Positions 3,892-14,980 of a DNA stretch of 64,000 nt are shown piece by piece. The notes beneath the pieces are model-generated. The model worked only from the letters and a program-made list of their open reading frames with translations, ran no database searches and was not told where the DNA came from. The stretch is from IMG/VR virus record IMGVR_UViG_3300027801_001565; one strand, given 5' to 3'. Position 1 is the first letter of the stretch. The number at the start of each line of letters is the position of its first letter. The stretch is from a virus. A program made the translations under genes and the position numbers.

Positions 3892-4461
3892 CTACTTCTT
3901 AGGAGAAGATAGCCTTTGGTATTTCTTAATCTTTTTATCTATAGACTTAAGAGCTCTTTTAATTTTCTCTTTAGACGCTCTCATAGTAAAGTTCTGTCCG
4001 AGCATGTGATCGTATTCATGTTGTATTACTCTTGATGTAATACCTTCATACGTCTCCATCTTTTCTTCACCTAACTCGTCCCAATACTTAATCATACATA
4101 CTGTAGGTCTTGAAATCATTAACCACAGTCCCGGGAACGATAAGCATCCTTCTTTCATTGCTTCTGTCTCTTTACCTACACCCATGATCTCTGGGTTAAA
4201 GAATGCCTTTTGCATTCCATCAGGTTGTCCGTCGCCAATTACAAACACCTTGGCGTCTATGCCAACTTGGTTAGCAGACAATCCTACTCCACCTAGTTCA
4301 GCCATTCTCTCTAACAAACGAGCCTTTAGTGCAGGTGCATCGTTGCCTTCAAATACATAAGGAGTAGGAGGTGTTCTAAGTTGAGGGTCTGCAAAGTTTA
4401 TAAGCTCTAGTGGATCTACTTCCGTTGCTTCTTGTACTTCTGTCAATTCCATTTCTTCCAT
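3892..4461 (-). CDS. def: Peptide deformylase
   Basis: GVGLSANQVG, EGCLS and QHEYDHMLG motifs. Confidence 0.95.
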   Translation of the reverse strand: MEEMELTEVQEATEVDPLELINFADPQLRTPPTPYVFEGNDAPALKARLLERMAELGGVGLSANQVGIDAKVFVIGDGQPDGMQKAFFNPEIMGVGKETEAMKEGCLSFPGLWLMISRPTVCMIKYWDELGEEKMETYEGITSRVIQHEYDHMLGQNFTMRASKEKIKRALKSIDKKIKKYQRLSSPKK

Positions 4462-4463
4462 AA

Positions 4464-4823
4464 TTAATTTCCTATTGTTGGTCGTTTATCGTCTTCAATT
4501 ATTCCGTCGTAACCTTTGAATCTATAGTATACTGTTATCTCTTCGCCTGACTTAATAGGCATAGTAGCATACAATGTTCTGTCACCTGCATCAGTAGTAA
4601 TAAAACAGTTTGGATTCTCACTATGATTTATAAAACCTCCGAGGGGCGTTCTAATCCATTCATGTCTGTCTCTGCTGTGTACTAACACATGGGTCTCACC
4701 AAAGACCGTACCGGCATCAAAAGATTGCTCTGCATGTAATCCTAAACCTTCGATCTTACTCTTCTTAATTGTAAGCCCTATAGGAAGTGGTCTGTATGTT
4801 GCGTTGGTATTAATTTTCATCAT
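4464..4823 (-). CDS. Minimal SET-domain protein (lysine methyltransferase-like)
   Basis: GLGLHA, FINHSENPN, GEEITVYY SET motifs. Confidence 0.85.
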   Translation of the reverse strand: MMKINTNATYRPLPIGLTIKKSKIEGLGLHAEQSFDAGTVFGETHVLVHSRDRHEWIRTPLGGFINHSENPNCFITTDAGDRTLYATMPIKSGEEITVYYRFKGYDGIIEDDKRPTIGN

Positions 4824-5139
4824 CCAACTTAGCTATATATTGTTGGTAACCACCAATTGATTCTCCGTCTACTATTATCTGTGGGAAGGTTCGAGCAGTT
4901 GGAAACTTCTCAAAAAACTCTTCCTCAGTATAGTCTGCATCTAACATGAAGTATTCATGGTCTATGTTTCTTTGTTTGGAAATATTCTTAGCTGCATCAC
5001 AATATGTGCATCTAGACTTTCCATATATTTCTACCTTCATTTTTATCTCCTTCTTAAAAATCTTATCCCAATTATCTGAGTACGCCTTATCGTTGGCGTT
5101 CCTTCTTTTGGAACCCTTACCACCGTGCCACTGGCTCAC
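4810..5139 (-). CDS. Glutaredoxin with in-frame N-terminal basic peptide (second start likely at 5040)
   Basis: CTYC, TFPQI, IGGY; AGGAGA SD before MKVEIY at 5040. Confidence 0.85.
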   Translation of the reverse strand: MSQWHGGKGSKRRNANDKAYSDNWDKIFKKEIKMKVEIYGKSRCTYCDAAKNISKQRNIDHEYFMLDADYTEEEFFEKFPTARTFPQIIVDGESIGGYQQYIAKLDDEN

Positions 5140-6809
5140 TTACTAATAACAGAATAGTTCTGTCTCTTCTCAAACCTAATAACAGATCTAAATTTATCAA
5201 ACAACTGATCACCCTTGTGTGAGATTACAAATACATTCGTATCATCACCTATAGTGTTCAACAGTTGCATCACATAGTCTGTTCCATTGTTATCTAAACT
5301 ACTATCAAACACTTCATCTAATAGTAGTATGTTTGTACTAGCGCTGTTCTTCATCTTAGCAATCGTTCGCCATGTAAACACTAGGGCTAAATCTATTCTT
5401 TGTTTCTCACCTTCACTAAAAGATGCGTAACTAAATTTGTCTCTGTGTCTAGACTTAATAGTCTCTTTAAATGTGCCGTCTAAATCAAACTGCACAAAGA
5501 AGTCCATCGCTGCTAAATATTTGTTTACAAGTTTATTTATTATAGGTAGATAGGCTTTTATGATTTTTGTTTTAATACCGGTATCCTTCAGCATAGACTG
5601 TGCGACGCTGTAGTACTGGCCTGTTTCACTTAGCTCTGTTCTGTTTACTGTTTTAGTTATAGCTTCTTTAGCTAATGTTTTTAATTTCTTTCTTTCGTCT
5701 GTAATGTTACCTACTTTAGTTTCAGTATCATTTAATTCTAGTTGTAGTCGCTGTTGTATTCTTTGTTGTGTAATGATCTCATTATTAGACTCCATAATCT
5801 TACTGTCCAACTCTGAAACCTTTGCTACAAGAACTTCAACCTCATCATACTTTATATTCAATTCTGTAAGAGCACTATCAAGAGCTGAGATCTTTGACTT
5901 ATCTCTTGTAGTTATAGTCTCCTTGTGTTCGTGTTCTATGCCTTGCTGACATGTAGGACACTCTTCATTTGAATCAAAGAATTCTATTTGCTTTCTGTGT
6001 GAACTGATTTGTCCTTCAAATTTTGTTCTATATCCTTCAAGTTGTCTTTTCTTTTCTGAAACAGTACCAATCGCCTGCTTTGCCTCTGTTGTCTGTCGAA
6101 CCTCATCTTGAGCCGTCTTGATCGCATTATCAGTTTCCTTTATTGTTTCTACGATTGCTTTAACCTTAGAGGACTTATCGTCTTCTAGTGTCTTGATATA
6201 CTGTTCTTGTATTGTAGCTTTTTGTTTGGCTACAGTCAAGTCTCCTTCAACTATTCTTTTCTTATTTTCCAAGTCTGCTAGTTTAGTTTTTAAAACATCG
6301 TTCATAGATGAGAATATACTAATGTCTAATATGTCCTCAATTATCTCACGTCGAGCACCCAGGTGTAACTGCATGAAGGGAGTGAATGATGCACTACCTA
6401 ACATAACAATCTGAGTAAACGATTTATAGTTAAGTTTTAAAATAGACTCTTCCAAATACTTCTGGAAGTCTCTTATGTTAGCGTTCTTATCTAACTGATC
6501 GCCGTTAATCTCGATGTCGAAAATCTTTGGGATCTCGCCACGCCTAATGAGATAATTCTTACTGCCTATACTAAATTCTATTTCTACTAACAGCTTCTTC
6601 TTATTTATAGAATTAATTAATTGGGGCTTGGATACAGATCTAAATGGCTTGTTAAACAATGCGAACGTTAATGCATCTAACATTGTACTCTTACCACTGC
6701 CGTTCTCTCCTAGTATTAATGTGCTAGGTGAATGATCAAACTTTATTTCTGTCCATGCGTTGCCAGTAGATAGAAAGTTTTTCCATCTTAAATTTTTAAA
6801 TATTATCAT
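5136..6809 (-). CDS. gp46: Recombination endonuclease subunit, SbcC/Rad50-like (T4 gp46)
   Basis: Walker A GENGSGKS, CPTC zinc hook, FSEGEK signature, LLDEVFD. Confidence 0.97.
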   Translation of the reverse strand: MIIFKNLRWKNFLSTGNAWTEIKFDHSPSTLILGENGSGKSTMLDALTFALFNKPFRSVSKPQLINSINKKKLLVEIEFSIGSKNYLIRRGEIPKIFDIEINGDQLDKNANIRDFQKYLEESILKLNYKSFTQIVMLGSASFTPFMQLHLGARREIIEDILDISIFSSMNDVLKTKLADLENKKRIVEGDLTVAKQKATIQEQYIKTLEDDKSSKVKAIVETIKETDNAIKTAQDEVRQTTEAKQAIGTVSEKKRQLEGYRTKFEGQISSHRKQIEFFDSNEECPTCQQGIEHEHKETITTRDKSKISALDSALTELNIKYDEVEVLVAKVSELDSKIMESNNEIITQQRIQQRLQLELNDTETKVGNITDERKKLKTLAKEAITKTVNRTELSETGQYYSVAQSMLKDTGIKTKIIKAYLPIINKLVNKYLAAMDFFVQFDLDGTFKETIKSRHRDKFSYASFSEGEKQRIDLALVFTWRTIAKMKNSASTNILLLDEVFDSSLDNNGTDYVMQLLNTIGDDTNVFVISHKGDQLFDKFRSVIRFEKRQNYSVISK

Positions 6810-7867
6810 AGAGTGTCCTGTGCCTCAATGTATAACGACTGTAATAGATTCTTAACTCTATGTTTATCTAAGTCTGTCTCTACTTGGTCTACATAATCTT
6901 TTAATAGTGTCATTGTATCCTCCAAGTCTATGTCCTCACCTAATGCCTCGTCCTCAAACTCTGAAAAGTCTTCAATAATTTTTAAGTCTATTAGGTTACA
7001 TGCGTATAGCTTGTCTACGAAATGATCAAACCTTGTGAAGTCTGTCTTCTTACTTACAATTAGTTTAACACAACCGCCGACAATAGAGTTAAAATCAAAA
7101 TTGCTAATATCATTGACACCTTCGAAATCGTTATCGTTGTAATAAATTTTGTGGAAGAGTCTAAACGGGTTGTCGCTGTAAGTAAGATCTCTTTTAACCG
7201 TGTCGAAAACGGCAAATCCCCTGGGATCGTTATAGTCAGACCAAGTAATTTCATAAGGGTTTCCCATATATGTAATGTTGCCTCGACTATGACGGTGATG
7301 GAAGTGGCCACTAACGACAAGATCAAACATGTTAACAGAACTAGGATCCATCCCATGAAGATTAGGCATTCCAGGAAGCATGTCATAACCCGCGAACTCA
7401 AAATGTCCGAAGCAAGTCTTTGCATCGGTTCCTTGTATTGCTTTAATTGTTTCATCATAATTTTCACCACATATCCATGGGAGAAATAATACCTTCTCCC
7501 GATCTAACATTATCTCAGTTGCTTCCTGATACAATGTAACGTTATCGTATCCCCCTAACAATAAGTTAGGAGAGTTTACATCATTTGTATTTTTAAAATA
7601 TGTATCATGATTGCCTGGAATCATATGTACATCAATGCCTAGCGATGATGCCTTATCAAAGAAGTATCTCTTACAAGACTGTAATGTATTAAAGTTTATA
7701 TACTTACGTCTATCAAACACATCTCCAAGATGGCAAATTGTTTTTATATCTTGCTCAACTAATTGAGGAAAGAAAAATTCATCATAAAATTTGGCAAAGT
7801 AAGCATCGAAAGCTAGGCTATCTGAGCGTGCACCAAAGTGTGTGTCTGTTACAAGAGCAACCTTCAT
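6806..7867 (-). CDS. gp47: Recombination endonuclease subunit, SbcD/Mre11-like (T4 gp47)
   Basis: TDTHFG, LGDVFD, GNHD, SGHFH phosphoesterase motifs. Confidence 0.97.
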   Translation of the reverse strand: MKVALVTDTHFGARSDSLAFDAYFAKFYDEFFFPQLVEQDIKTICHLGDVFDRRKYINFNTLQSCKRYFFDKASSLGIDVHMIPGNHDTYFKNTNDVNSPNLLLGGYDNVTLYQEATEIMLDREKVLFLPWICGENYDETIKAIQGTDAKTCFGHFEFAGYDMLPGMPNLHGMDPSSVNMFDLVVSGHFHHRHSRGNITYMGNPYEITWSDYNDPRGFAVFDTVKRDLTYSDNPFRLFHKIYYNDNDFEGVNDISNFDFNSIVGGCVKLIVSKKTDFTRFDHFVDKLYACNLIDLKIIEDFSEFEDEALGEDIDLEDTMTLLKDYVDQVETDLDKHRVKNLLQSLYIEAQDTL

Positions 7868-7870
7868 AGA

Positions 7871-8326
7871 TTACGCCTCGTATATCGCGCTGTTAGCTCC
7901 GTGTTCACGAACCTCACAAGACGTAGCGAAACATCTACCACCACTCTTTTCAGATACCAAGTTGTCTGCAAAATGAAATGCCTGCTCAGCAAACTTCTCA
8001 CAACCTACGCCATTCATAACTCTCACTTCTGAAAGTCCTCTAGCTTCTGTTTGTAAAAAGAATTCCATTTCAGGATCGTCTTTTGCTACTGCGTGCTTGT
8101 GATCAAAGTTATCTTTTAGCCATGCTTTAAGTTCTTTCAAGTCTCCAAAGTCGACTACCCAATTTTTGTCATCTAAAATATTACAACCAAATGTAAATTT
8201 AAAAGATAAAGCATAGCCGTGTAGTAAACTACAATGGCTGTGTAATGCTAGTGGTTGTCTAAACATACAGGATAATCCTTCTTCGTGTCCGTATGTCTTA
8301 GTTGATAAGTATTTAAATTCTTTCAT
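7871..8326 (-). CDS. queD: 6-carboxy-5,6,7,8-tetrahydropterin synthase
   Basis: HCSLLHGY, VVDFGDLK, FDH, CEKFAE, EHGANSAIY. Confidence 0.9.
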   Translation of the reverse strand: MKEFKYLSTKTYGHEEGLSCMFRQPLALHSHCSLLHGYALSFKFTFGCNILDDKNWVVDFGDLKELKAWLKDNFDHKHAVAKDDPEMEFFLQTEARGLSEVRVMNGVGCEKFAEQAFHFADNLVSEKSGGRCFATSCEVREHGANSAIYEA

Positions 8327-9387
8327 TATGTAAGCTCCTTATATAGATTAGTAGCTGAAAAGTATTCTTTTTCCAGCTTATCTCTGTTTGTTTCAATGGC
8401 CGTTTGTACTGCCTGGTGTTCAAAGTTTGTCATCAAGTCTGTTATCTTCTGACATAACTCTTCCTTATGGTCCTGGTATGTCCTCCAATCTTCAGCCCAA
8501 TCTGATGGGTATTTAAATATGTCATCATACATTTCCATATAAGAAAGTCTATTAGGAACTAATGGAATCCCACCGCCTCTTAATATCTCATAACAGCTGA
8601 TGCCTAATGTCTCTTGATTGTTTGCTGAGAATACCATTTTAGATTCTTCGATAAGTCTGTTGTATTCTGGTTTTGTAAGATTGTAATCATTACAATTAAT
8701 AAATTGGTATTGAGGTAATTCCTCTGCCAGATCTAGAAATATATCTAGTTGTTTTTCTGGTGCGTTTCTGTGAGGGAATAGAATAATATCTTTCTTTTCT
8801 GTACCTGGATTTATATGTGTATTAAGATACTCCATAGGCCATCCTGTTCTTACAATTTTACTTCTTAAATATTCCTCATCTTGTTGTCCATCAAACATTA
8901 CAGTAGCAAACATACCAATGTGAAATTGAGATGCAAAATAGTTTCTATCGAAAGCATCAAACATAGCATACTCTGTATGTCTAACCCACTTCTTATTTCC
9001 TATACGTCTACCTAAGAAGTCATGTGCATCGTAACTACCTGCGTGCCATAAACCATGTGTAGTTATATCAACGTTCAATAACTCTGCCATGTATTTAAGT
9101 TGTAACACACCAGGGTGCCAAGCATCTGCAAAGACAAAGTGATCTCCATCTTCTACTTTTTCTTTCTGAAAAAGATCTGCTATAATTTTAACTTGTTCAG
9201 ACTTATAAATGTTCGTGCCTGCAAAGTCTAAGAAGGCACCGGGAGTGGTGCCATTTGCTATGTCTTCTGGTCCTTCTATAACAGTAACGTCCTGTCCTGT
9301 TCTATCAGATATTGACTGGGGGAACTCGTCTTTCCACTGAGCTGTATATCTAGTCTCTACATATTCTAAATCAACTAAATAAATCAT
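8326..9387 (-). CDS. GT-B fold glycosyltransferase-like protein
   Basis: C-terminal FPHRNAPEKQ...ETLGISCYE...GGIPLVPNRLSYMEM resembles the GT4-type E-x7-E nucleotide-sugar binding region. Confidence 0.7.
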   Translation of the reverse strand: MIYLVDLEYVETRYTAQWKDEFPQSISDRTGQDVTVIEGPEDIANGTTPGAFLDFAGTNIYKSEQVKIIADLFQKEKVEDGDHFVFADAWHPGVLQLKYMAELLNVDITTHGLWHAGSYDAHDFLGRRIGNKKWVRHTEYAMFDAFDRNYFASQFHIGMFATVMFDGQQDEEYLRSKIVRTGWPMEYLNTHINPGTEKKDIILFPHRNAPEKQLDIFLDLAEELPQYQFINCNDYNLTKPEYNRLIEESKMVFSANNQETLGISCYEILRGGGIPLVPNRLSYMEMYDDIFKYPSDWAEDWRTYQDHKEELCQKITDLMTNFEHQAVQTAIETNRDKLEKEYFSATNLYKELT

Positions 9388-9772
9388 TTTCTATTATCCC
9401 TCCATTCTCATTATCCTCGTATACTTCAACTCTAACAGGTCTGTTAGGATACTGTTCTTCTATATAATTTATAAGAGCTTCACCTATCATTTCACAAGAC
9501 TGGTGGTCTAGTTCGAGGACTGCGGTAGAGCTGTCTACTTCGTCATAAAGTCTTTCTAGTTCACGTTTAAATTGTATGAACTCTACATCTCTGTCGTTAT
9601 GTTCTACACCGAGTGTTACATAGAAATGGAACATGTGTCTGTGAGGATATCCTAAAAAGCTAACATCGTCCCATTCACCTGTAGCATACTTAGGATTTGT
9701 ATCTGCTCCTGGGAAAAAATGTACTCCCTCTTTTTGGAAGCTTACTTTTATGAAGCGGTTCTTATAAGCCAT
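9371..9772 (-). CDS. QueD-like T-fold protein, DpdL-like (putative CDG decarboxylase)
   Basis: LGYPHRHMF (LxxxHRHxF), SCEM, VYEDNENG; inside deazaguanine cluster. Confidence 0.65.
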   Translation of the reverse strand: MAYKNRFIKVSFQKEGVHFFPGADTNPKYATGEWDDVSFLGYPHRHMFHFYVTLGVEHNDRDVEFIQFKRELERLYDEVDSSTAVLELDHQSCEMIGEALINYIEEQYPNRPVRVEVYEDNENGGIIENDLFS

Positions 9773-10305
9773 GTTGGTTCCTCTCTGTTTGTATATTTAG
9801 CAAAGTCAATTTTGTATTTGTTGTAATACCTGCGATAAGAGTTGACTACACTCTCACCTTTTACATCGTCTGGCATTGCCAACGGTAATCCTTTTACATC
9901 TGCCTCACTAGCAAATGGAATATTTTTAGGTGCGTACTTCAAAAGATGTTCTAATTTTTCTTGTGTTAAGTGAGTACGCCCATACCTGTGAGTATATTCT
10001 TTAGATAGTTTATACCATAGATCATATAGATAATTATAATTGGCAGAGCTACTTCTAACCCAGATACCATCTGGGTGGTTAACATGGCTTGCCTTATATA
10101 ATGTAGATTCCATATTGTTATTACTATGTCTCCATCGCTTGATAGCTCTACCGTTTTTTGTTTTGTCTCCATATAAATCTCCGTCTAATACTCTATGTGC
10201 TGTAGACATTAGTTGTGCGTATTCAATTACCATTTTAACAACATGCTTATCACAATGTTGTTCTGCACATAGTAGTGGGTTTTCATTAAGTAAAAATATG
10301 TTCAT
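9748..10305 (-). CDS. Pyrimidine-dimer DNA glycosylase (DenV/endonuclease V-like)
   Basis: MNIF..HCDKHVVKMVIEYAQLMSTAHR, HVNHP, EYTHRYGRTH, AMPD, YRRYY. Confidence 0.8.
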   Translation of the reverse strand: MNIFLLNENPLLCAEQHCDKHVVKMVIEYAQLMSTAHRVLDGDLYGDKTKNGRAIKRWRHSNNNMESTLYKASHVNHPDGIWVRSSSANYNYLYDLWYKLSKEYTHRYGRTHLTQEKLEHLLKYAPKNIPFASEADVKGLPLAMPDDVKGESVVNSYRRYYNKYKIDFAKYTNREEPTWLIRTAS

Positions 10306-11576
10306 TCAAATAAATCCTCTAAACTACTAGGTGCCTCCGTACCAACAGCCATGCTCTTCATACTGCCACCTAAATACTGGTTGTTTTCCCAGGCATCGTA
10401 TTCTTCACGATTAGTTACATTGTACAAGTTTCTGAACTGTCCGTCAAGTTTTAACTTACCCGTAAACTTCAATAAGGTATCCTTGTCTAACATCATAGAT
10501 TCTAAGTGTGCCATAAAGTTTCTAATGGACATTAGGATAAATGCTGTCCTAACATAGATCCAAGTGTTTAAGTTGCCATATTTCTCTTTAGCTTTTAAGG
10601 AAGGTGTGTTCATAAGCTCGTGAAATTCGTCTAGATCTACGCCCAATTGGACTGTTTCCTGCACGTTATTGTACATTTCACGATACAAATTAGACATTTT
10701 CCTATTGAACTTAGTTGTGCCTTTACCCATGTAATATAAACCCGTCTCAACCGCCCTGCTGTGTGTAGTAGAGTCATATGATATTTCTACATTGTCATAC
10801 AAACCGTTCTGACAAAAGACTAAGTAAGGAAGCATACGTCTGATACTACCTACTCCCAAGACGTGTAAGTGCATGATCTCTTGTGGCCATATCTTAGCAA
10901 TCTCAGAGGCAATAAAGGCTCTTTTAACATCTTCTAATGGGCCGGTGCCTAGAGCCGCTGCTCCCATTGCAACACCACCAATTCTATCGTGCCATTCTGA
11001 TGGTACTTCTTCCATTAGAAGCTCATACCATCTAAGGTATGTATCAATACAGTTACCCTGTAGGATAATATAAGGTTTACATGTACTACCTGCTTTATCA
11101 AATATTTCTAATTGTCTTTTAACATTTCTACCTGTCTTACGAGCCAGTTCTTCATAGTTCTCAAAGTCAAAGAACCTAGCCTTTGTATCGTTTCTATCTG
11201 ACTTACCGCCTGTAAGGATAACAGGTATCTCATCAAAGCACATGCCAACGTCTGCCCACTTGGCTTGGTTCTCATATACTTTATCTTTTAATTCATCTGT
11301 AATTACCATACCTTGGGTAACAATCTGTAGTCCACCTGAGTCTGCGTGGATCTCATTTACATGAGGCTTATATACTGTGAACCTTTCACCAAAGCTTGAC
11401 TCTGTATGTGCGTTGTAAAGCATAGAAAACTTGTGGCTATGTACATCAGTTACTAACTTGTCTATAAGCATGTTTATTATCTGGGAGTTTGTCTCGTCTT
11501 TTGCTACACTAGGATTACTAAATCTCATATAGCTAGTACCCGAAACAACATAGTCTAGTTTTCTATTTTTAATCAT
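10302..11576 (-). CDS. dpdA: DNA 7-deazaguanine transglycosylase (TGT-fold, DpdA family)
   Basis: ADSGGLQ, FDEIP, ILQG, HLHVLGVG, SYDSTTH; lacks the tRNA-TGT CxCxxC zinc site; clustered with folE/queD/queE. Confidence 0.8.
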   Translation of the reverse strand: MIKNRKLDYVVSGTSYMRFSNPSVAKDETNSQIINMLIDKLVTDVHSHKFSMLYNAHTESSFGERFTVYKPHVNEIHADSGGLQIVTQGMVITDELKDKVYENQAKWADVGMCFDEIPVILTGGKSDRNDTKARFFDFENYEELARKTGRNVKRQLEIFDKAGSTCKPYIILQGNCIDTYLRWYELLMEEVPSEWHDRIGGVAMGAAALGTGPLEDVKRAFIASEIAKIWPQEIMHLHVLGVGSIRRMLPYLVFCQNGLYDNVEISYDSTTHSRAVETGLYYMGKGTTKFNRKMSNLYREMYNNVQETVQLGVDLDEFHELMNTPSLKAKEKYGNLNTWIYVRTAFILMSIRNFMAHLESMMLDKDTLLKFTGKLKLDGQFRNLYNVTNREEYDAWENNQYLGGSMKSMAVGTEAPSSLEDLFE

Positions 11577-12082
11577 GATCTAAGAATCTCAATTAACACC
11601 TTAGCTTCTGCTGTTGCATCGTCTAAAGCATTGTGGTTATTTGCCTTGGGCAATCTTTTATTCAATACATTCATAAGAGTTCGTAAACAAGATATGTCCC
11701 AGAACTTCCAGGGTATGTCTACGTTCACTGCTTTCATTGCACTCTCTAATATAACAATATCAAAGTTGGCACCGTAACCCCATGCTGGGAATGATTGTGT
11801 GCCGTACCAAGACACAAATTTGTCTAGTGCTTCTTGTAGATCAACAGGATCTTTTTGCCAAGCCTCTCTAGCCTCGACAGTTTGTTCTTGCCACCACTTA
11901 ATTGTACCAGGATCTATGTGTAGTCCTGCCTCTTTACATGACTTAGCATCTACATTAATATAAAACGTATCTACAATTTCCATGTTGTCAATTAGTACTG
12001 CCCCAATAGATACAATACATGCGTTAGGTTCTGTACTTAGAGTTTCTAAGTCAATTACTACATGTTTTTTAGATGTGTCCAT
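11573..12082 (-). CDS. DEDDh 3'-5' exonuclease (DexA-like)
   Basis: IDLETL, GANFD, HNALDDA. Confidence 0.85.
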   Translation of the reverse strand: MDTSKKHVVIDLETLSTEPNACIVSIGAVLIDNMEIVDTFYINVDAKSCKEAGLHIDPGTIKWWQEQTVEAREAWQKDPVDLQEALDKFVSWYGTQSFPAWGYGANFDIVILESAMKAVNVDIPWKFWDISCLRTLMNVLNKRLPKANNHNALDDATAEAKVLIEILRS

Positions 12083-12761
12083 TGCCTATTTCCTGTAATT
12101 TAATATTGTCCATAAATTCTTGTTTAAGATGTATGTTAGTTTTTAACTCACCTTTAACAACCGTTGTTTGTGTAGAACTATTACTTGCCATTATGCCTCT
12201 GTTCTCACAGCAACCATGTCTCGCTCTAATGTAAACTGCTACACCCTTACTTTGTGTAAGTTTCTCAATACGTTCTGCTATCATTTCTGTTAGCTCTTCT
12301 TGTAAGTGTCCGCGATTTGATAAGTGCTGAGCAACTCTTGTGTACTTGGACAAACCAATAACAAAGTCACCTGGCAAACACCCTATGTAACATACACCAC
12401 TCACTGGTTGGTGATGATGTGAACACATGGATTTAATATTCATTCGTACAACAATTAGTTGATCGTACTGGCCTTCGTTAGGGAAAGAAGCTATCCTAGG
12501 ATCTGGTAAATACCTACCACTCATTATCTCATTAATATACATCTTTGCCAAACGATTAGCTGTACCTTCTGAATTTGGATCATTGTCTGTGTCTATAATA
12601 AGACTACTTAATACTCCTTGAAACTTACTTGCCAACTCGTCTATAAGTTGTTGTCTCTCATAGTCATCTAATATATATTCTGAAATATTATCAGCGGCAA
12701 AGTAACGTTTACCGTCTGCCTTTAGTCTTGTCTTAATTATCTCGCTCATTAAATCTGTCAT
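12069..12761 (-). CDS. folE: GTP cyclohydrolase I
   Basis: SMCSHHHQP, GLSKYTR, LQEELT, HGCCENRG; start re-called to MTDLM (TAATG overlap). Confidence 0.95.
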   Translation of the reverse strand: MTDLMSEIIKTRLKADGKRYFAADNISEYILDDYERQQLIDELASKFQGVLSSLIIDTDNDPNSEGTANRLAKMYINEIMSGRYLPDPRIASFPNEGQYDQLIVVRMNIKSMCSHHHQPVSGVCYIGCLPGDFVIGLSKYTRVAQHLSNRGHLQEELTEMIAERIEKLTQSKGVAVYIRARHGCCENRGIMASNSSTQTTVVKGELKTNIHLKQEFMDNIKLQEIGNGHI

Positions 12762-13183
12762 TATTTTTTCTCCCACGGAAATACTAACCATTGTGTGTTA
12801 TTATACAGAGTCTTACCTACAAAGTCAAGCTCCATTGTACCAATTTTATCATAAAGTACCGCCCATTGGCTAGTAGGCATGTACTCTTTTATCTGTTGTA
12901 TTGTTAACCCAGAGTCACATATATCATCTACAAATATCAGCTCGTCTACGTTCTCTTCTAAGTTAAGTAGAGTTGGTACATCTTTATCGCTACCATCTCT
13001 TGTCTGCCATTGTAGAGCTGTAAAAGGTATGTCTAACATCTGAGATATCATAACCCCTGGTATAAGTCCACCTCTACTAATGCCTATTACTCTTTTATAT
13101 TCTCTCTCACCTATTCGTAATGCCAACAACTGGACAATCTTTTCCATCTGACTCCAGTTGATATACATTTTAGGCTCACTCAT
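12761..13183 (-). CDS. Purine phosphoribosyltransferase (Gpt-like)
   Basis: GISRGGLIPG, FVDDICDSGLT (PRPP-binding loop), WLVFPWE; start re-called to MSEPK. Confidence 0.88.
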   Translation of the reverse strand: MSEPKMYINWSQMEKIVQLLALRIGEREYKRVIGISRGGLIPGVMISQMLDIPFTALQWQTRDGSDKDVPTLLNLEENVDELIFVDDICDSGLTIQQIKEYMPTSQWAVLYDKIGTMELDFVGKTLYNNTQWLVFPWEKK

Positions 13184-13392
13184 ATTTTTACCGCCAGTAC
13201 AACTAGGATACATAGCTGAATTATAATAACCAACAGTAACTCTAATGCTAAAATTGTGTGATACCATATCCATCTTGTTTTATATGCTGTATCTATTGAT
13301 ACGTCTGCTGGATCTGGATCTAGCCATTGTTCCTTCGGTATCGCTATCGGTGAGGTGCCTCCCCACATTACTTCTTTAAATCGTTTCCACAT
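13180..13392 (-). CDS. Small membrane protein
   Basis: C-terminal hydrophobic helix; tightly packed between queE and the PRTase. Confidence 0.65.
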   Translation of the reverse strand: MWKRFKEVMWGGTSPIAIPKEQWLDPDPADVSIDTAYKTRWIWYHTILALELLLVIIIQLCILVVLAVKI

Positions 13393-13393
13393 T

Positions 13394-14281
13394 TTATGTC
13401 CCCCATGCGTTGCCGAAGAGATCTATATGTAATCGAGGACTAAATTTATATCCAGTCTTCATACATGCCTCTGCTACGTCTTTTGCTGTTAGTGCTTGTT
13501 GTTCCATTGTTGCGCCTTCTGGCATACAATATACCGAATGTATCTGTACCCCACTTTTCTGATACTGTAGAACAAAATAGTCTACCTCAGTAAAGTCTTC
13601 TATATCACGAACAACAAATTTGTTATATAGAAAGCTGTTATATACCTGATTCATTGTAACCAGTGCGTCTGGAATACATGCCTCGTCTTGCTTTTCACCA
13701 CTAAGGCTTAGCTTAGGAGATGTACTCCATGTTACATGTACTTTATCGTGGTTCGCATTAAAAAACTCTACTAGTGCTGGTGTAACCTTTTGTGTGCCAT
13801 TAGTTTCAAACGTTACATTCTTTAATCCTATGTTCATACACATTTGTATGAGCTCAGGCCATACTCTCTGCCAGCCTAACAAAGGTTCACCACCTGTAAT
13901 AACTAAATGTATGTCTTCCTTCTCATCAAACTTCCCATTAGGTAGTAGGCTGACGATATGTTCAAATACCTCATCAGAAGTCTTTGTCATTTGTAGATGC
14001 TTATATTTCATAGCCCATGAAGCAGAACTATCACATCCAACAGGTGTAACTGGAAGTTCTGATATGTCTTTGTAAGCGTCTGGATGATTTTTATCGCCCT
14101 TAGGATCTAACATGTAGGGCATCTGATCTGTAGCAAGGTAGTTGCCACGTTCCTGTCCAAAGCCTGCACACTCAAAGTTGCAACCGAAAGTTCTCAAGAA
14201 TACACTAGGGACTCCTACGAATCTGCCTTCGCCTTGGATGCTATAAAAAGCTTCGCTGTATCTAAGTTTTGATTGTTTCAT
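13394..14281 (-). CDS. queE: 7-carboxy-7-deazaguanine synthase (radical SAM)
   Basis: FYSIQGEG..G.PSVFLRTFGCNFEC..GCDS, ITGGEPL, FETNGT, SPKL, SPRLH. Confidence 0.93.
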   Translation of the reverse strand: MKQSKLRYSEAFYSIQGEGRFVGVPSVFLRTFGCNFECAGFGQERGNYLATDQMPYMLDPKGDKNHPDAYKDISELPVTPVGCDSSASWAMKYKHLQMTKTSDEVFEHIVSLLPNGKFDEKEDIHLVITGGEPLLGWQRVWPELIQMCMNIGLKNVTFETNGTQKVTPALVEFFNANHDKVHVTWSTSPKLSLSGEKQDEACIPDALVTMNQVYNSFLYNKFVVRDIEDFTEVDYFVLQYQKSGVQIHSVYCMPEGATMEQQALTAKDVAEACMKTGYKFSPRLHIDLFGNAWGT

Positions 14282-14289
14282 AATATGGT

Positions 14290-14318
14290 ATTATATATAA
14301 GTCCTAGGTAGAAGTCAA
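14290..14318 (-). promoter_or_regulatory. sigma70-type promoter TTGACT-N17-TATAAT, 8 nt before queE ATG
   Basis: Direct sequence match. Confidence 0.75.
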
Positions 14319-14980
14319 GACATAAATTCGTCGTTTGGTTGACCGTTTTCTTCAATTACTTTCTCGGTGGGGTTAAGTGCCTCTGCTTCTGCCTCTGCTG
14401 CTGCCAAAGCCTCTGCTGCTTTAATTTTTTCGTCTAAGTATTTAGGTCTACGTTTAGGCATCTTCTTGCCTTCGTTCTGTTTGTCTGCTTTAATATTATC
14501 TGCTTCAGCTTGTTCAATAATATTTCTCATATAACCTAAGTAGTCGTTAGTGTGTTCAGTACCGTCTGCACTATTCTCTAGAATCTGTTCAATGTCTAAC
14601 GATTTAATGTACTTGAACTTTGTTTCCATCTGACGCTTCTCTTTCTGAATACGTCTAATGAATGCGTAGTATGTTATTTGTGTGAAGTAAGCAAAGGGAT
14701 TAGATGATTTTGCTGGATCAAAGTTGTGCATATATGTAAGACAGTTTTCAATGCCGTCTAGGATCATTTCATCTCTGAATGTATAGTTTACAAAGTTTGC
14801 CTTGTAAGCTAAATGGTTTGCAATCTTAACAAAACATTCTCCGATGTAGTTTGTTACACGTGGTTTTTCTTCACCACTCTCTTCTGCTTCCAACCTGGAA
14901 GTACGGTACTCAGATATCCTTGCTAAGAATTCTTTGTTGTCAATGTAATGTGCCGAGTTTGGGTCACGTCTTTTAGCCAT
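14315..14980 (-). CDS. gp55: Late transcription sigma factor (T4 gp55)
   Basis: HYIDNKEF, YIGECFVKIA, NPFAYFTQI.YYAFIRRI.KEK. Confidence 0.96.
   Translation of the reverse strand: MAKRRDPNSAHYIDNKEFLARISEYRTSRLEAEESGEEKPRVTNYIGECFVKIANHLAYKANFVNYTFRDEMILDGIENCLTYMHNFDPAKSSNPFAYFTQITYYAFIRRIQKEKRQMETKFKYIKSLDIEQILENSADGTEHTNDYLGYMRNIIEQAEADNIKADKQNEGKKMPKRRPKYLDEKIKAAEALAAAEAEAEALNPTEKVIEENGQPNDEFMS

Follow-up and report, generated by a model that had tools for sequence, protein, structure and literature searches.

Introduction

Some phages carry 7-deazaguanine derivatives in place of guanine in their DNA, and the enzymes of these phages are the closest described counterparts of the locus analysed here. 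In Cellulophaga phage phiST, 2'-deoxy-7-deazaguanosine (dDG) substitutes all G in the DNA, and the available text of the paper on this system gives FolE, QueD, QueE, DpdL and DpdA, without QueC, as the route to dDG, with DpdL, defined by the signature LxxxHRHxF, as the proposed decarboxylase of 7-carboxy-7-deazaguanine (CDG) (Cui, Hutinet et al., NAR 2023, PMC10516641). Vibrio phage nt-1 has ArcS and carries 2'-deoxy-7-cyano-7-deazaguanosine (dPreQ0) and 2'-deoxyarchaeosine (dG+), and its transglycosylase DpdA2 inserts 7-cyano-7-deazaguanine (preQ0) in E. coli (Hutinet et al. 2019, PMC6884629). Acidovorax phage ACP17 has a contiguous cluster for QueD, FolE, DpdA, a glycosyltransferase (GT), DpdL and QueE, and this GT goes undiscussed in the available text of PMC10516641. 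The subject of the present analysis is a ten-gene operon in a 64,000-nt stretch of the IMG/VR virus record IMGVR_UViG_3300027801_001565; "the window" means this whole stretch, and coordinates are positions in it. The window is a piece of an uncultured marine T4-like myophage, and its operon very probably directs a deazaguanine modification of DNA through DpdL and DpdA.

The operon also encodes a GT. To our knowledge, all known glycosylated DNA bases are pyrimidines, namely glucosyl- and arabinosyl-hydroxymethylcytosine, base J and glycosylated 5-hydroxycytosine. The T4 alpha- and beta-glucosyltransferases, which act on hydroxymethylcytosine and are presumed to protect DNA, share with the operon the GT-B fold and the setting of a T4-like phage. 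Outside DNA, the natural products huimycin and dapiramicins are N2-glycosylated 7-deazapurines, and the huimycin cluster, of the GTP cyclohydrolase I/QueD/QueE type, encodes the GT HuiG, proposed to place the sugar on the 2-amino group of the 7-deazapurine (PMC7439116). Huimycin is an actinomycete secondary metabolite derived from preQ0 as a free base, with QueC present and no DNA involved; it shows that glycosylation of a 7-deazapurine is chemically and enzymatically feasible. The tubercidin and toyocamycin clusters, like the operon, encode a phosphoribosyltransferase (PRTase; TubE, ToyH) together with FolE, QueD and QueE homologues. TubE joins CDG to phosphoribosyl pyrophosphate (PRPP) before decarboxylation, and, unlike the operon, these clusters rely on a UbiD-family decarboxylase rather than a T-fold protein and yield a free nucleoside antibiotic (PMC6112128). 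No description of a glycosylated deazaguanine in DNA was found in a literature search.

Results

A DpdL-type deazaguanine operon with a DpdA2-type transglycosylase

Ten minus-strand open reading frames (ORFs), running from 14281 down to 7871 and all overlapping or abutting their neighbours, make up the operon. Those on which the argument turns are the following.

13394..14281, minus strand: queE, QueE-like radical S-adenosylmethionine CDG synthase, 295 aa (phrog_2076 at 6.8e-54)
12761..13183, minus strand: Gpt-like type I purine PRTase (PF00156), probable start at 13183 (140 aa); the longest ORF extends to 13273
12069..12791, minus strand: folE, GTP cyclohydrolase I (PF01227 at 1.9e-39; phrog_2197)
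10302..11576, minus strand: dpdA, DpdA2-type DNA guanine transglycosylase, 424 aa (phrog_10773; hhalign to KVP40.0122)
9371..9772, minus strand: dpdL, QueD-like T-fold protein, 133 aa, proposed CDG decarboxylase (motif LGYPHRHMF)
8326..9387, minus strand: GT4-like GT-B glycosyltransferase, 353 aa (AlphaFold fold and EX7E-spaced glutamates)
7871..8326, minus strand: queD, 6-carboxytetrahydropterin (CPH4) synthase of the 6-pyruvoyltetrahydropterin synthase family (PTPS-I), CxxxHGY variant (PF01242 at 1e-12; phrog_2389 at 2e-37)

The family assignments of FolE, QueD and QueE are solid, QueD being a probable CPH4 synthase. QueD scores 48.5 bits against PF01242 (cut-off 22.4) and falls below the cut-off of TIGR03367; in its motif CSLLHGY the last His of CxxxHGH is replaced by Tyr, a variant common to the QueD proteins of Synechococcus phage BUCT-ZZ01 and ACP17. 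The window QueE matches the QueE models of NCBIfam below their cut-offs and is 42% identical to the QueE of BUCT-ZZ01. The T-fold protein carries LGYPHRHMF where QueD has CxxxHGH, and this motif fits the DpdL signature exactly. In an alignment the signature is kept in relatives of the window and in ACP17, Xanthomonas phage X1 and Sinorhizobium phage Phosso, and tblastn relates the window protein to the DpdL of ACP17 (46% identity, 7e-27) and of phiST (33%, 2e-7). DpdL thus occurs together with FolE, QueD, QueE and DpdA, and without QueC, in the operon and in the window.

These assignments change the standing of several claims of the original prediction, which had been made from the letters of the window. 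Its branching of the pathway at CDG holds. It had counted the T-fold protein among unexplained extra enzymes, and this no longer applies, the protein being DpdL by its signature. It had also read the missing queC as a sign of new chemistry, which does not follow, because FolE, QueD, QueE, DpdL and DpdA without QueC are the published route to dDG. The other two extra enzymes that it named, the GT-B protein and the PRTase, are confirmed, and none of the published deazaguanine pathways found includes them. Because published pathways leave this GT and this purine salvage enzyme unaccounted for, the window DNA may hold a new sugar-bearing purine.

The transglycosylase belongs with the DpdA2 enzymes. 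By hhalign it matches KVP40.0122 of Vibrio phage KVP40 over its full length (probability 100, E 7e-54, 406 columns, 32% identity), and tblastn finds it in ACP17 at 1e-58 (33% identity) and in BUCT-ZZ01 at 8e-105. The segments D79-S-G-G-L-Q and Y267-D268-S-T-T are invariant in 11 DpdA sequences down to 35% identity; we read these segments as the DSGG and (F/Y)DS motifs that hold the catalytic aspartates of tRNA-guanine transglycosylases (TGT). Protein-atlas neighbours of DpdA bear TGT or DpdA families. Since phmmer and profile searches of PDB sequences gave chance matches only and no TGT, the assignment rests on DpdA2 homology and the motifs. KVP40.0122 sits between folE and queC (exsB) in KVP40, which we assume to be a close relative of nt-1, and is presumably the orthologue of nt-1 DpdA2; by homology to this type, the window enzyme would exchange bases in DNA. 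Membership of the DpdA3 subfamily (phiST, CP220; complete replacement of G) was rejected: hhalign against phiST CGPG_00065/gp042 gives a probability of 0.2, and Cellulophaga or Campylobacter phages are absent from the 71 DpdA tblastn matches. Because it has no relation to the DpdA3 of phiST, the window pairs DpdL with a DpdA2-type enzyme.

The operon can now be set against the described systems. With phiST it shares FolE, QueD, QueE, DpdL, a DNA transglycosylase, a DEDDh exonuclease and the lack of QueC, which for the window refers to the operon (PMC10516641); it differs in the subfamily of the transglycosylase, and phiST has no GT or PRTase and possesses a MazG-like gene and an annotated ATPase. 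Like the window, nt-1 and KVP40 belong to T4-like phages (PMC6884629), and in KVP40 the transglycosylase, homologous to that of the window over its full length, is encoded next to folE. Unlike the window, KVP40 carries queC (exsB) and a gene of the glutamine amidotransferase type beside the gene for DpdA2 and lacks DpdL in the region examined, whereas the window has DpdL, GT and PRTase, and no QueC in the operon. ACP17 comes close in its contiguous cluster (DpdA 33%, GT 36% with a TM-score of 0.82, DpdL 46%), which, in contrast to the operon, lacks a PRTase, a DenV-like gene and an exonuclease.

Two further phages show DpdL in other settings. The T4-like Rhizobium phage RHph_I1_18 (L152) has PTPS, FolE and DpdL genes beside its gp46/gp47 homologues, much the same genomic surroundings as in the window; a macro-domain (Appr-1-p processing) gene comes next, and there is no GT. 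In Vibrio phage Bakedbeans, for which the search gave no GT homologue, an annotated 383-aa ORF (L153:5212-6363) contains the DpdL-like match in its C-terminal third; the ORF may be a DpdL fused to another domain or an annotation artefact.

The glycosyltransferase is linked to DpdL across distant phages

The AlphaFold model of the GT (pLDDT 86, pTM 0.84) has two Rossmann-like domains in a GT-B fold. Foldseek against PDB returns BshA, MshA, PglA and glycogen synthase (E 1e-8 to 1e-7, TM-scores 0.57-0.64), and the modelled protein is nearest to the retaining GT4 enzymes BshA, MshA and PglA; its best viral structural match is the GT of ACP17. E259 and E267, in EX7E spacing, are invariant, as are K198, R207 and K212, and by analogy these glutamates and basic residues may form the nucleotide-sugar site. 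The GT scores 15.5 bits against Pfam Glycos_transf_1, below the gathering score of 26.4, and its best PDB profile match is a putative GT at E 0.14; since the sequence is too divergent for the Pfam cut-off, membership rests on fold and motif. Judged from fold and motif, the protein is a genuine member of the sugar-transferring enzymes. It is not an orthologue of T4 alpha-glucosyltransferase, to which it shows no detectable sequence similarity (BLASTP E 4.7).

The link of the GT to deazaguanine genes comes from its neighbourhoods. All full-length GenBank phage homologues (E below 1e-17) are encoded within ~4 kb of a DpdL gene, mostly adjacent to it, in ACP17, Xanthomonas phages X1/BUDD, the PA5oct group, Phosso and Burkholderia phage BCSR5. 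The GT of BUCT-ZZ01, a weaker match (E 5e-6, 63% of the query covered), shows the same linkage. Altogether the family accompanies DpdL in seven lineages of cultured phages. At E below 1e-30, a library of 1.8 billion proteins yields 542 cluster representatives of the family. Six metagenomic contexts were sampled: five have neighbouring FolE, PTPS or QueE genes, three of these five also a DpdL-motif ORF, and the contig of the sixth does not extend far enough for a judgement. Across the marine clade to which the window belongs the GT is kept, the most distant members having a 406-aa divergent homologue (hhalign probability 98.6).

Genes for the making or tailoring of sugars accompany the GT in some of these clusters. 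In the most distant of the syntenic marine relatives, a 311-aa NAD-dependent nucleotide-sugar epimerase/dehydratase (PF01370, 1.4e-49; L040:9981-10916) lies between the GT gene and queD, which points to different sugars in sister phages. Other GT clusters hold a GT-A (L149) or a polysaccharide deacetylase with methyltransferases (L146). In BUCT-ZZ01 a 447-aa ORF just upstream of dpdA (L001:6659-8002) has weak matches to Glyco_trans_1_4 and Glycos_transf_1, and this phage may have two GT-B genes flanking dpdA and dpdL. With an epimerase/dehydratase in some sister clusters and a GT-A, a deacetylase or a second GT in others, the sugar on the deazapurine would vary among lineages, much as hydroxymethylcytosine in T-even phages bears either glucosyl or arabinosyl groups.

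Hydroxymethyl-pyrimidines, the substrates of the T4 enzymes, were considered as acceptors of the sugar. In two complete relatives there is no gene of the thymidylate-synthase/hydroxymethylase family (PF00303), so the usual pre-replicative hydroxymethyl-pyrimidine acceptor is lacking and action of the GT on such bases is disfavoured. The GT thus differs from the T4 glucosyltransferases in sequence, in the lack of a hydroxymethylase-family gene in complete relatives and in its deazaguanine gene partners. PA5oct, which has the same DpdL-GT-PRTase module, resists restriction enzymes with G in their sites.

The phosphoribosyltransferase

The most likely start codon of the PRTase is the ATG at 13183; together with the stop codon of the preceding 70-aa ORF it forms the overlap ATGA. 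It scores 28.7 bits against PF00156 (cut-off 26.3), matches phrog_8995 at 2e-30 and has the PRPP loop VDDICDSGLT. Its match to the xanthine PRTase model NF006613 (1e-20, 73.8 bits) is below the equivalog cut-off of 138, so the substrate cannot be inferred from it. Homologues are encoded in the clusters of BUCT-ZZ01 and PA5oct; in the cluster regions examined of ACP17, X1 and Phosso there is no match.

A QueC-like gene in the marine relatives

Neither queC nor queF is present in the operon or in the 64-kb window. A check for both elsewhere in the genome, run on relatives, gave different answers for the two genes: queF is absent from the complete relatives, and a QueC-like gene occurs in all six long IMG/VR relatives (G001-G006). 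It encodes a divergent 227-aa QueC-family PP-loop ATPase and immediately precedes nrdB, at a distance of ~56 kb from the operon (in G001 at L056:1015-1698); G002 and G004 have two tandem paralogues. The absence of queC that was originally predicted therefore stands for the operon and the window and cannot be claimed genome-wide, because all six long relatives carry this gene.

The QueC-like protein has an SGGFDS PP-loop and the C-terminal zinc motif of QueC, SC..CGECFWC..R..GF. Only its C-terminal 55 residues match QueC models, at 34.5 bits against a cut-off of 150 for TIGR00364. Its only homologue from a GenBank phage is in Ralstonia phage RsoM2USA, which is not among the matches of the DpdL or GT searches. 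Four phages with the DpdL-GT module, BUCT-ZZ01, ACP17, PA5oct and Phosso, give no QueC match in their complete genomes, and a fifth, X1, gives only a sub-threshold one of 16 bits. A general partnership with DpdL and GT was rejected on the absence of the gene from these four complete cultured genomes, and for the same reason we regard it as clade-specific and probably not a member of the pathway.

Layout, flanks and remaining genes

The remaining features of the locus are listed below.

14315..14980, minus strand: gp55, late sigma factor (phrog_234 at 7e-59)
14290..14318, minus strand: sigma70-type promoter TTGACT-17-TATAAT before queE, in the only intergenic gap (33 bp, gp55-queE)
13180..13392, minus strand: 70-aa ORF with a C-terminal hydrophobic helix, no family match
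11573..12082, minus strand: DEDDh 3'-5' exonuclease, Rv2179c-like (PF16473 at 2.7e-40; phrog_255)
9748..10305, minus strand: DenV-like (Pyr_excise family) DNA glycosylase homologue (phrog_624 at 1.8e-51)
6806..7867, minus strand: gp47, SbcCD-like recombination nuclease with gp46 (Pfam matches)
5136..6809, minus strand: gp46, SbcCD-like recombination nuclease with gp47 (Pfam matches); the gp46/gp47 block spans 5136..7867

The operon has UvsW, a 135-aa ORF and gp55 on its upstream side and gp47 and gp46 downstream, the latter flank with a phrog_100 match at 6.5e-109. The gp46 protein shares ~47% identity with its counterparts in Methylophilales phage Melnitz and cyanophage P-HM2, and megablast against GenBank phages finds no near DNA match to the operon. 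Its outline as originally drawn, ten tightly overlapping genes, is reproduced ORF by ORF on the minus strand. The remark that it occupies the slot of the T4 alpha-glucosyltransferase gene is also correct, because the T4 genes run gp46-gp47-a-gt-gp55 with matching order and orientation; only the position is shared. The survey of dpdA neighbourhoods that had been proposed finds the complete operon syntenic in ~50 marine IMG/VR contigs, with DpdA identities of 57-100% and a DpdA conserved in every cluster of the clade.

The promoter that had been assigned to the operon agrees with the sigma70 consensus at 11 of 12 positions. It likewise holds up in comparison: nearly all relatives have a hexamer pair with 10-12 of 12 positions at a constant distance from the queE start, while the spacer sequence varies, the pattern that a genuine early or middle promoter would be expected to show. 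In six relatives (L005, L007, L008, L009, L016, L029) the gp55-queE gap measures ~620-650 bp, an extra 0.6 kb, and the promoter still lies directly before queE. Another sigma70-type site, TTGACT-17-TATAAT with 11 of 12 positions, is found on the minus strand at 12800-12828, inside the end of the PRTase gene and just upstream of the folE start, and may be an internal promoter.

The 70-aa ORF is in place in closer relatives (53-92% identity) and is not detected in more distant ones. The exonuclease has a homologue in the BUCT-ZZ01 cluster; the DEDDh exonuclease beside queD in phiST is alike at the motif level only. In phiST (L156:1402-2325, 4415-5002, 5299-5796) the cluster is flanked by this exonuclease and holds the MazG-like pyrophosphohydrolase and the annotated ATPase (PF13238); such nucleotide-level functions fit oddly with a purely post-replicative model, and a DEDDh exonuclease recurs in the window clade and BUCT-ZZ01.

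The DenV-like protein belongs to a family of >1900 homologues, mostly marine, and is 99% identical to a Tara Oceans protein. It has no Pfam match of its own at E up to 10 and nothing in PDB sequences by phmmer, and its AlphaFold model (pLDDT 48) is too poor for a fold search; homologues at 64% and 60% identity pass PF03013 (29.4 and 28.5 bits, cut-off 23), and the same family occurs in 10-13% of the members of its atlas neighbours. Several relatives have the gene outside the operon or lack it at the examined locus, and it is probably a repair passenger. The "glycosylase" beside DpdL in Phosso was considered as its counterpart and is unrelated to it.

Discussion

Proposed pathway

Taken together, the operon would be expressed early, would swap guanine in the phage DNA for a 7-deazaguanine-type base, and would then most likely decorate this base with a sugar. 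FolE, QueD and QueE would convert GTP into CDG, and DpdL would decarboxylate CDG to 7-deazaguanine, as the pairing in phiST of DpdL without QueC and dDG in the DNA suggests. The DpdA2-type enzyme would then exchange G in DNA for the deazapurine, in the manner of preQ0 insertion by its homologues of the nt-1/KVP40 type. With a nucleotide-sugar as donor, the GT would glycosylate the deazaguanine, whether already in DNA or still to be inserted, a step to which its gene linkage points. Of the possible acceptors, the exocyclic N2 has the natural-product precedent of huimycin, and a C-glycoside at the electron-rich C7/C8 would be another; that the GT puts a sugar on the DpdA-inserted 7-deazaguanine in one of these ways is a tentative proposal, which we rate somewhat below an even chance. 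More speculatively, the Gpt-like PRTase would serve the same scheme: each exchange frees one guanine per deazapurine inserted, and the enzyme could return it to GMP and GTP, the substrate of FolE, or else make a deazapurine nucleotide. The purpose would be to shield the phage DNA from host nucleases, as with other deazaguanines. Whereas the DpdL-DpdA core is very probable, the scheme as a whole, glycosylation included, comes near to an even chance and falls just short of it.

Several observations weigh against the scheme. The activity of DpdL as a CDG decarboxylase is itself a proposal, and according to the available text of PMC10516641, dpdL and dpdA of phiST and of ACP17, cloned by Cui et al., yielded no dDG in E. 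coli, for which the authors consider that further enzymes are possibly required. From the same text, the DpdA2 enzymes assayed to date modify just a small share of G. The sugar step is proposed from gene linkage known from genomes, and within the operon it is only the GT that points in this way to a new sugar-decorated base. Unsubstituted 7-deazaguanine offers no evident hydroxyl or amine handle at C7, and the window operon has no sugar-activating gene. DpdL systems without a GT exist (phiST, RHph_I1_18 and others), so the GT is not required for the production of dDG. In addition, the QueC-like gene of the relatives could alter the pathway.

Alternative explanations

The main rival of glycosylation is that the operon makes plain dDG as phiST does, while the GT acts on a protein, a lipid or some other feature of the DNA, or serves DpdL or DpdA as a non-catalytic helper. 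dDG is the sole experimentally anchored outcome of FolE, QueD, QueE and DpdL without QueC, and both the phages with DpdL and no GT and the missing handle on 7-deazaguanine fit this explanation. However, a GT with such unrelated duties would hardly be expected to be nearly confined to the DpdL clusters of very distant phages, to retain two invariant EX7E-spaced glutamates with invariant basic residues, and to be joined inside these clusters by nucleotide-sugar tailoring genes; we consider plain dDG rather unlikely. The QueC-like ATPase suggests a different branch, in which it would complete a preQ0 or 7-amido-7-deazaguanine (ADG)-type pathway, or form another amide, so that the inserted base would be of the 7-cyano or 7-amido type and DpdL would have another role. 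The occurrence of the gene, with PP-loop and zinc motif, in every long relative speaks for this, and QueC-family enzymes are known to activate the CDG carboxylate for amide formation; published abstracts name the role of QueC in 7-deazaguanine biosynthesis and, for type IV CBASS, a deazaguanylation that conjugates protein and nucleobase. Against it stand the low score confined to the last 55 residues, the position far from the operon beside nrdB, the lack of a QueC match in the four cultured DpdL-GT phages and the origin of the sole GenBank phage homologue in a phage outside the DpdL and GT matches, which together make such a branch very improbable.

A last alternative concerns the level at which the base is built, and is compatible both with the sugar step and with plain dDG. 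The PRTase would act like TubE of the tubercidin pathway and couple CDG or 7-deazaguanine with PRPP. DpdL would decarboxylate the resulting nucleotide, which the ribonucleotide reductase of the phage and kinases of the host would turn into 7-deaza-dGTP for incorporation by the polymerase, and DpdA would only top up or repair. TubE takes CDG and PRPP, not 7-deazaguanine, with decarboxylation then at the nucleotide level (PMC6112128). The recurrence of the PRTase in three DpdL-GT lineages, the MazG-like pyrophosphohydrolase and PF13238 ATPase of the phiST cluster and the failure of DpdL and DpdA alone in E. coli also agree with a nucleotide intermediate. Yet the cluster regions of ACP17, X1 and Phosso show no PRTase, DpdA is never lost in the marine clade, and a deaza-GTP pool would enter RNA too. 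The PRTase most resembles guanine/xanthine salvage enzymes, in equally good agreement with guanine recycling, and computation does not separate the two roles; we hold synthesis at the nucleotide level to be decidedly unlikely.

Significance

If the preferred reading of a glycosylated deazaguanine is true, DNA hypermodification would gain a new class, sugar-bearing deazapurines, and a glycosylated purine analogue would for the first time be known from a genome. Defences based on restriction, CRISPR or glycosylases would be affected, as would sequencing and PCR of the modified DNA. The failed reconstitution with DpdL and DpdA in E. coli would find an explanation, and the parts that it lacked would have names. 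The module is common, with its 542 GT cluster representatives and ~50 marine T4-like contigs, and ACP17, PA5oct, BUCT-ZZ01, X1 and Phosso are cultured carriers. Should the base prove to be plain dDG, the known range of the DpdL pathway would still widen, to include DpdA2-type enzymes as well as T4-like phages that are abundant in the sea.

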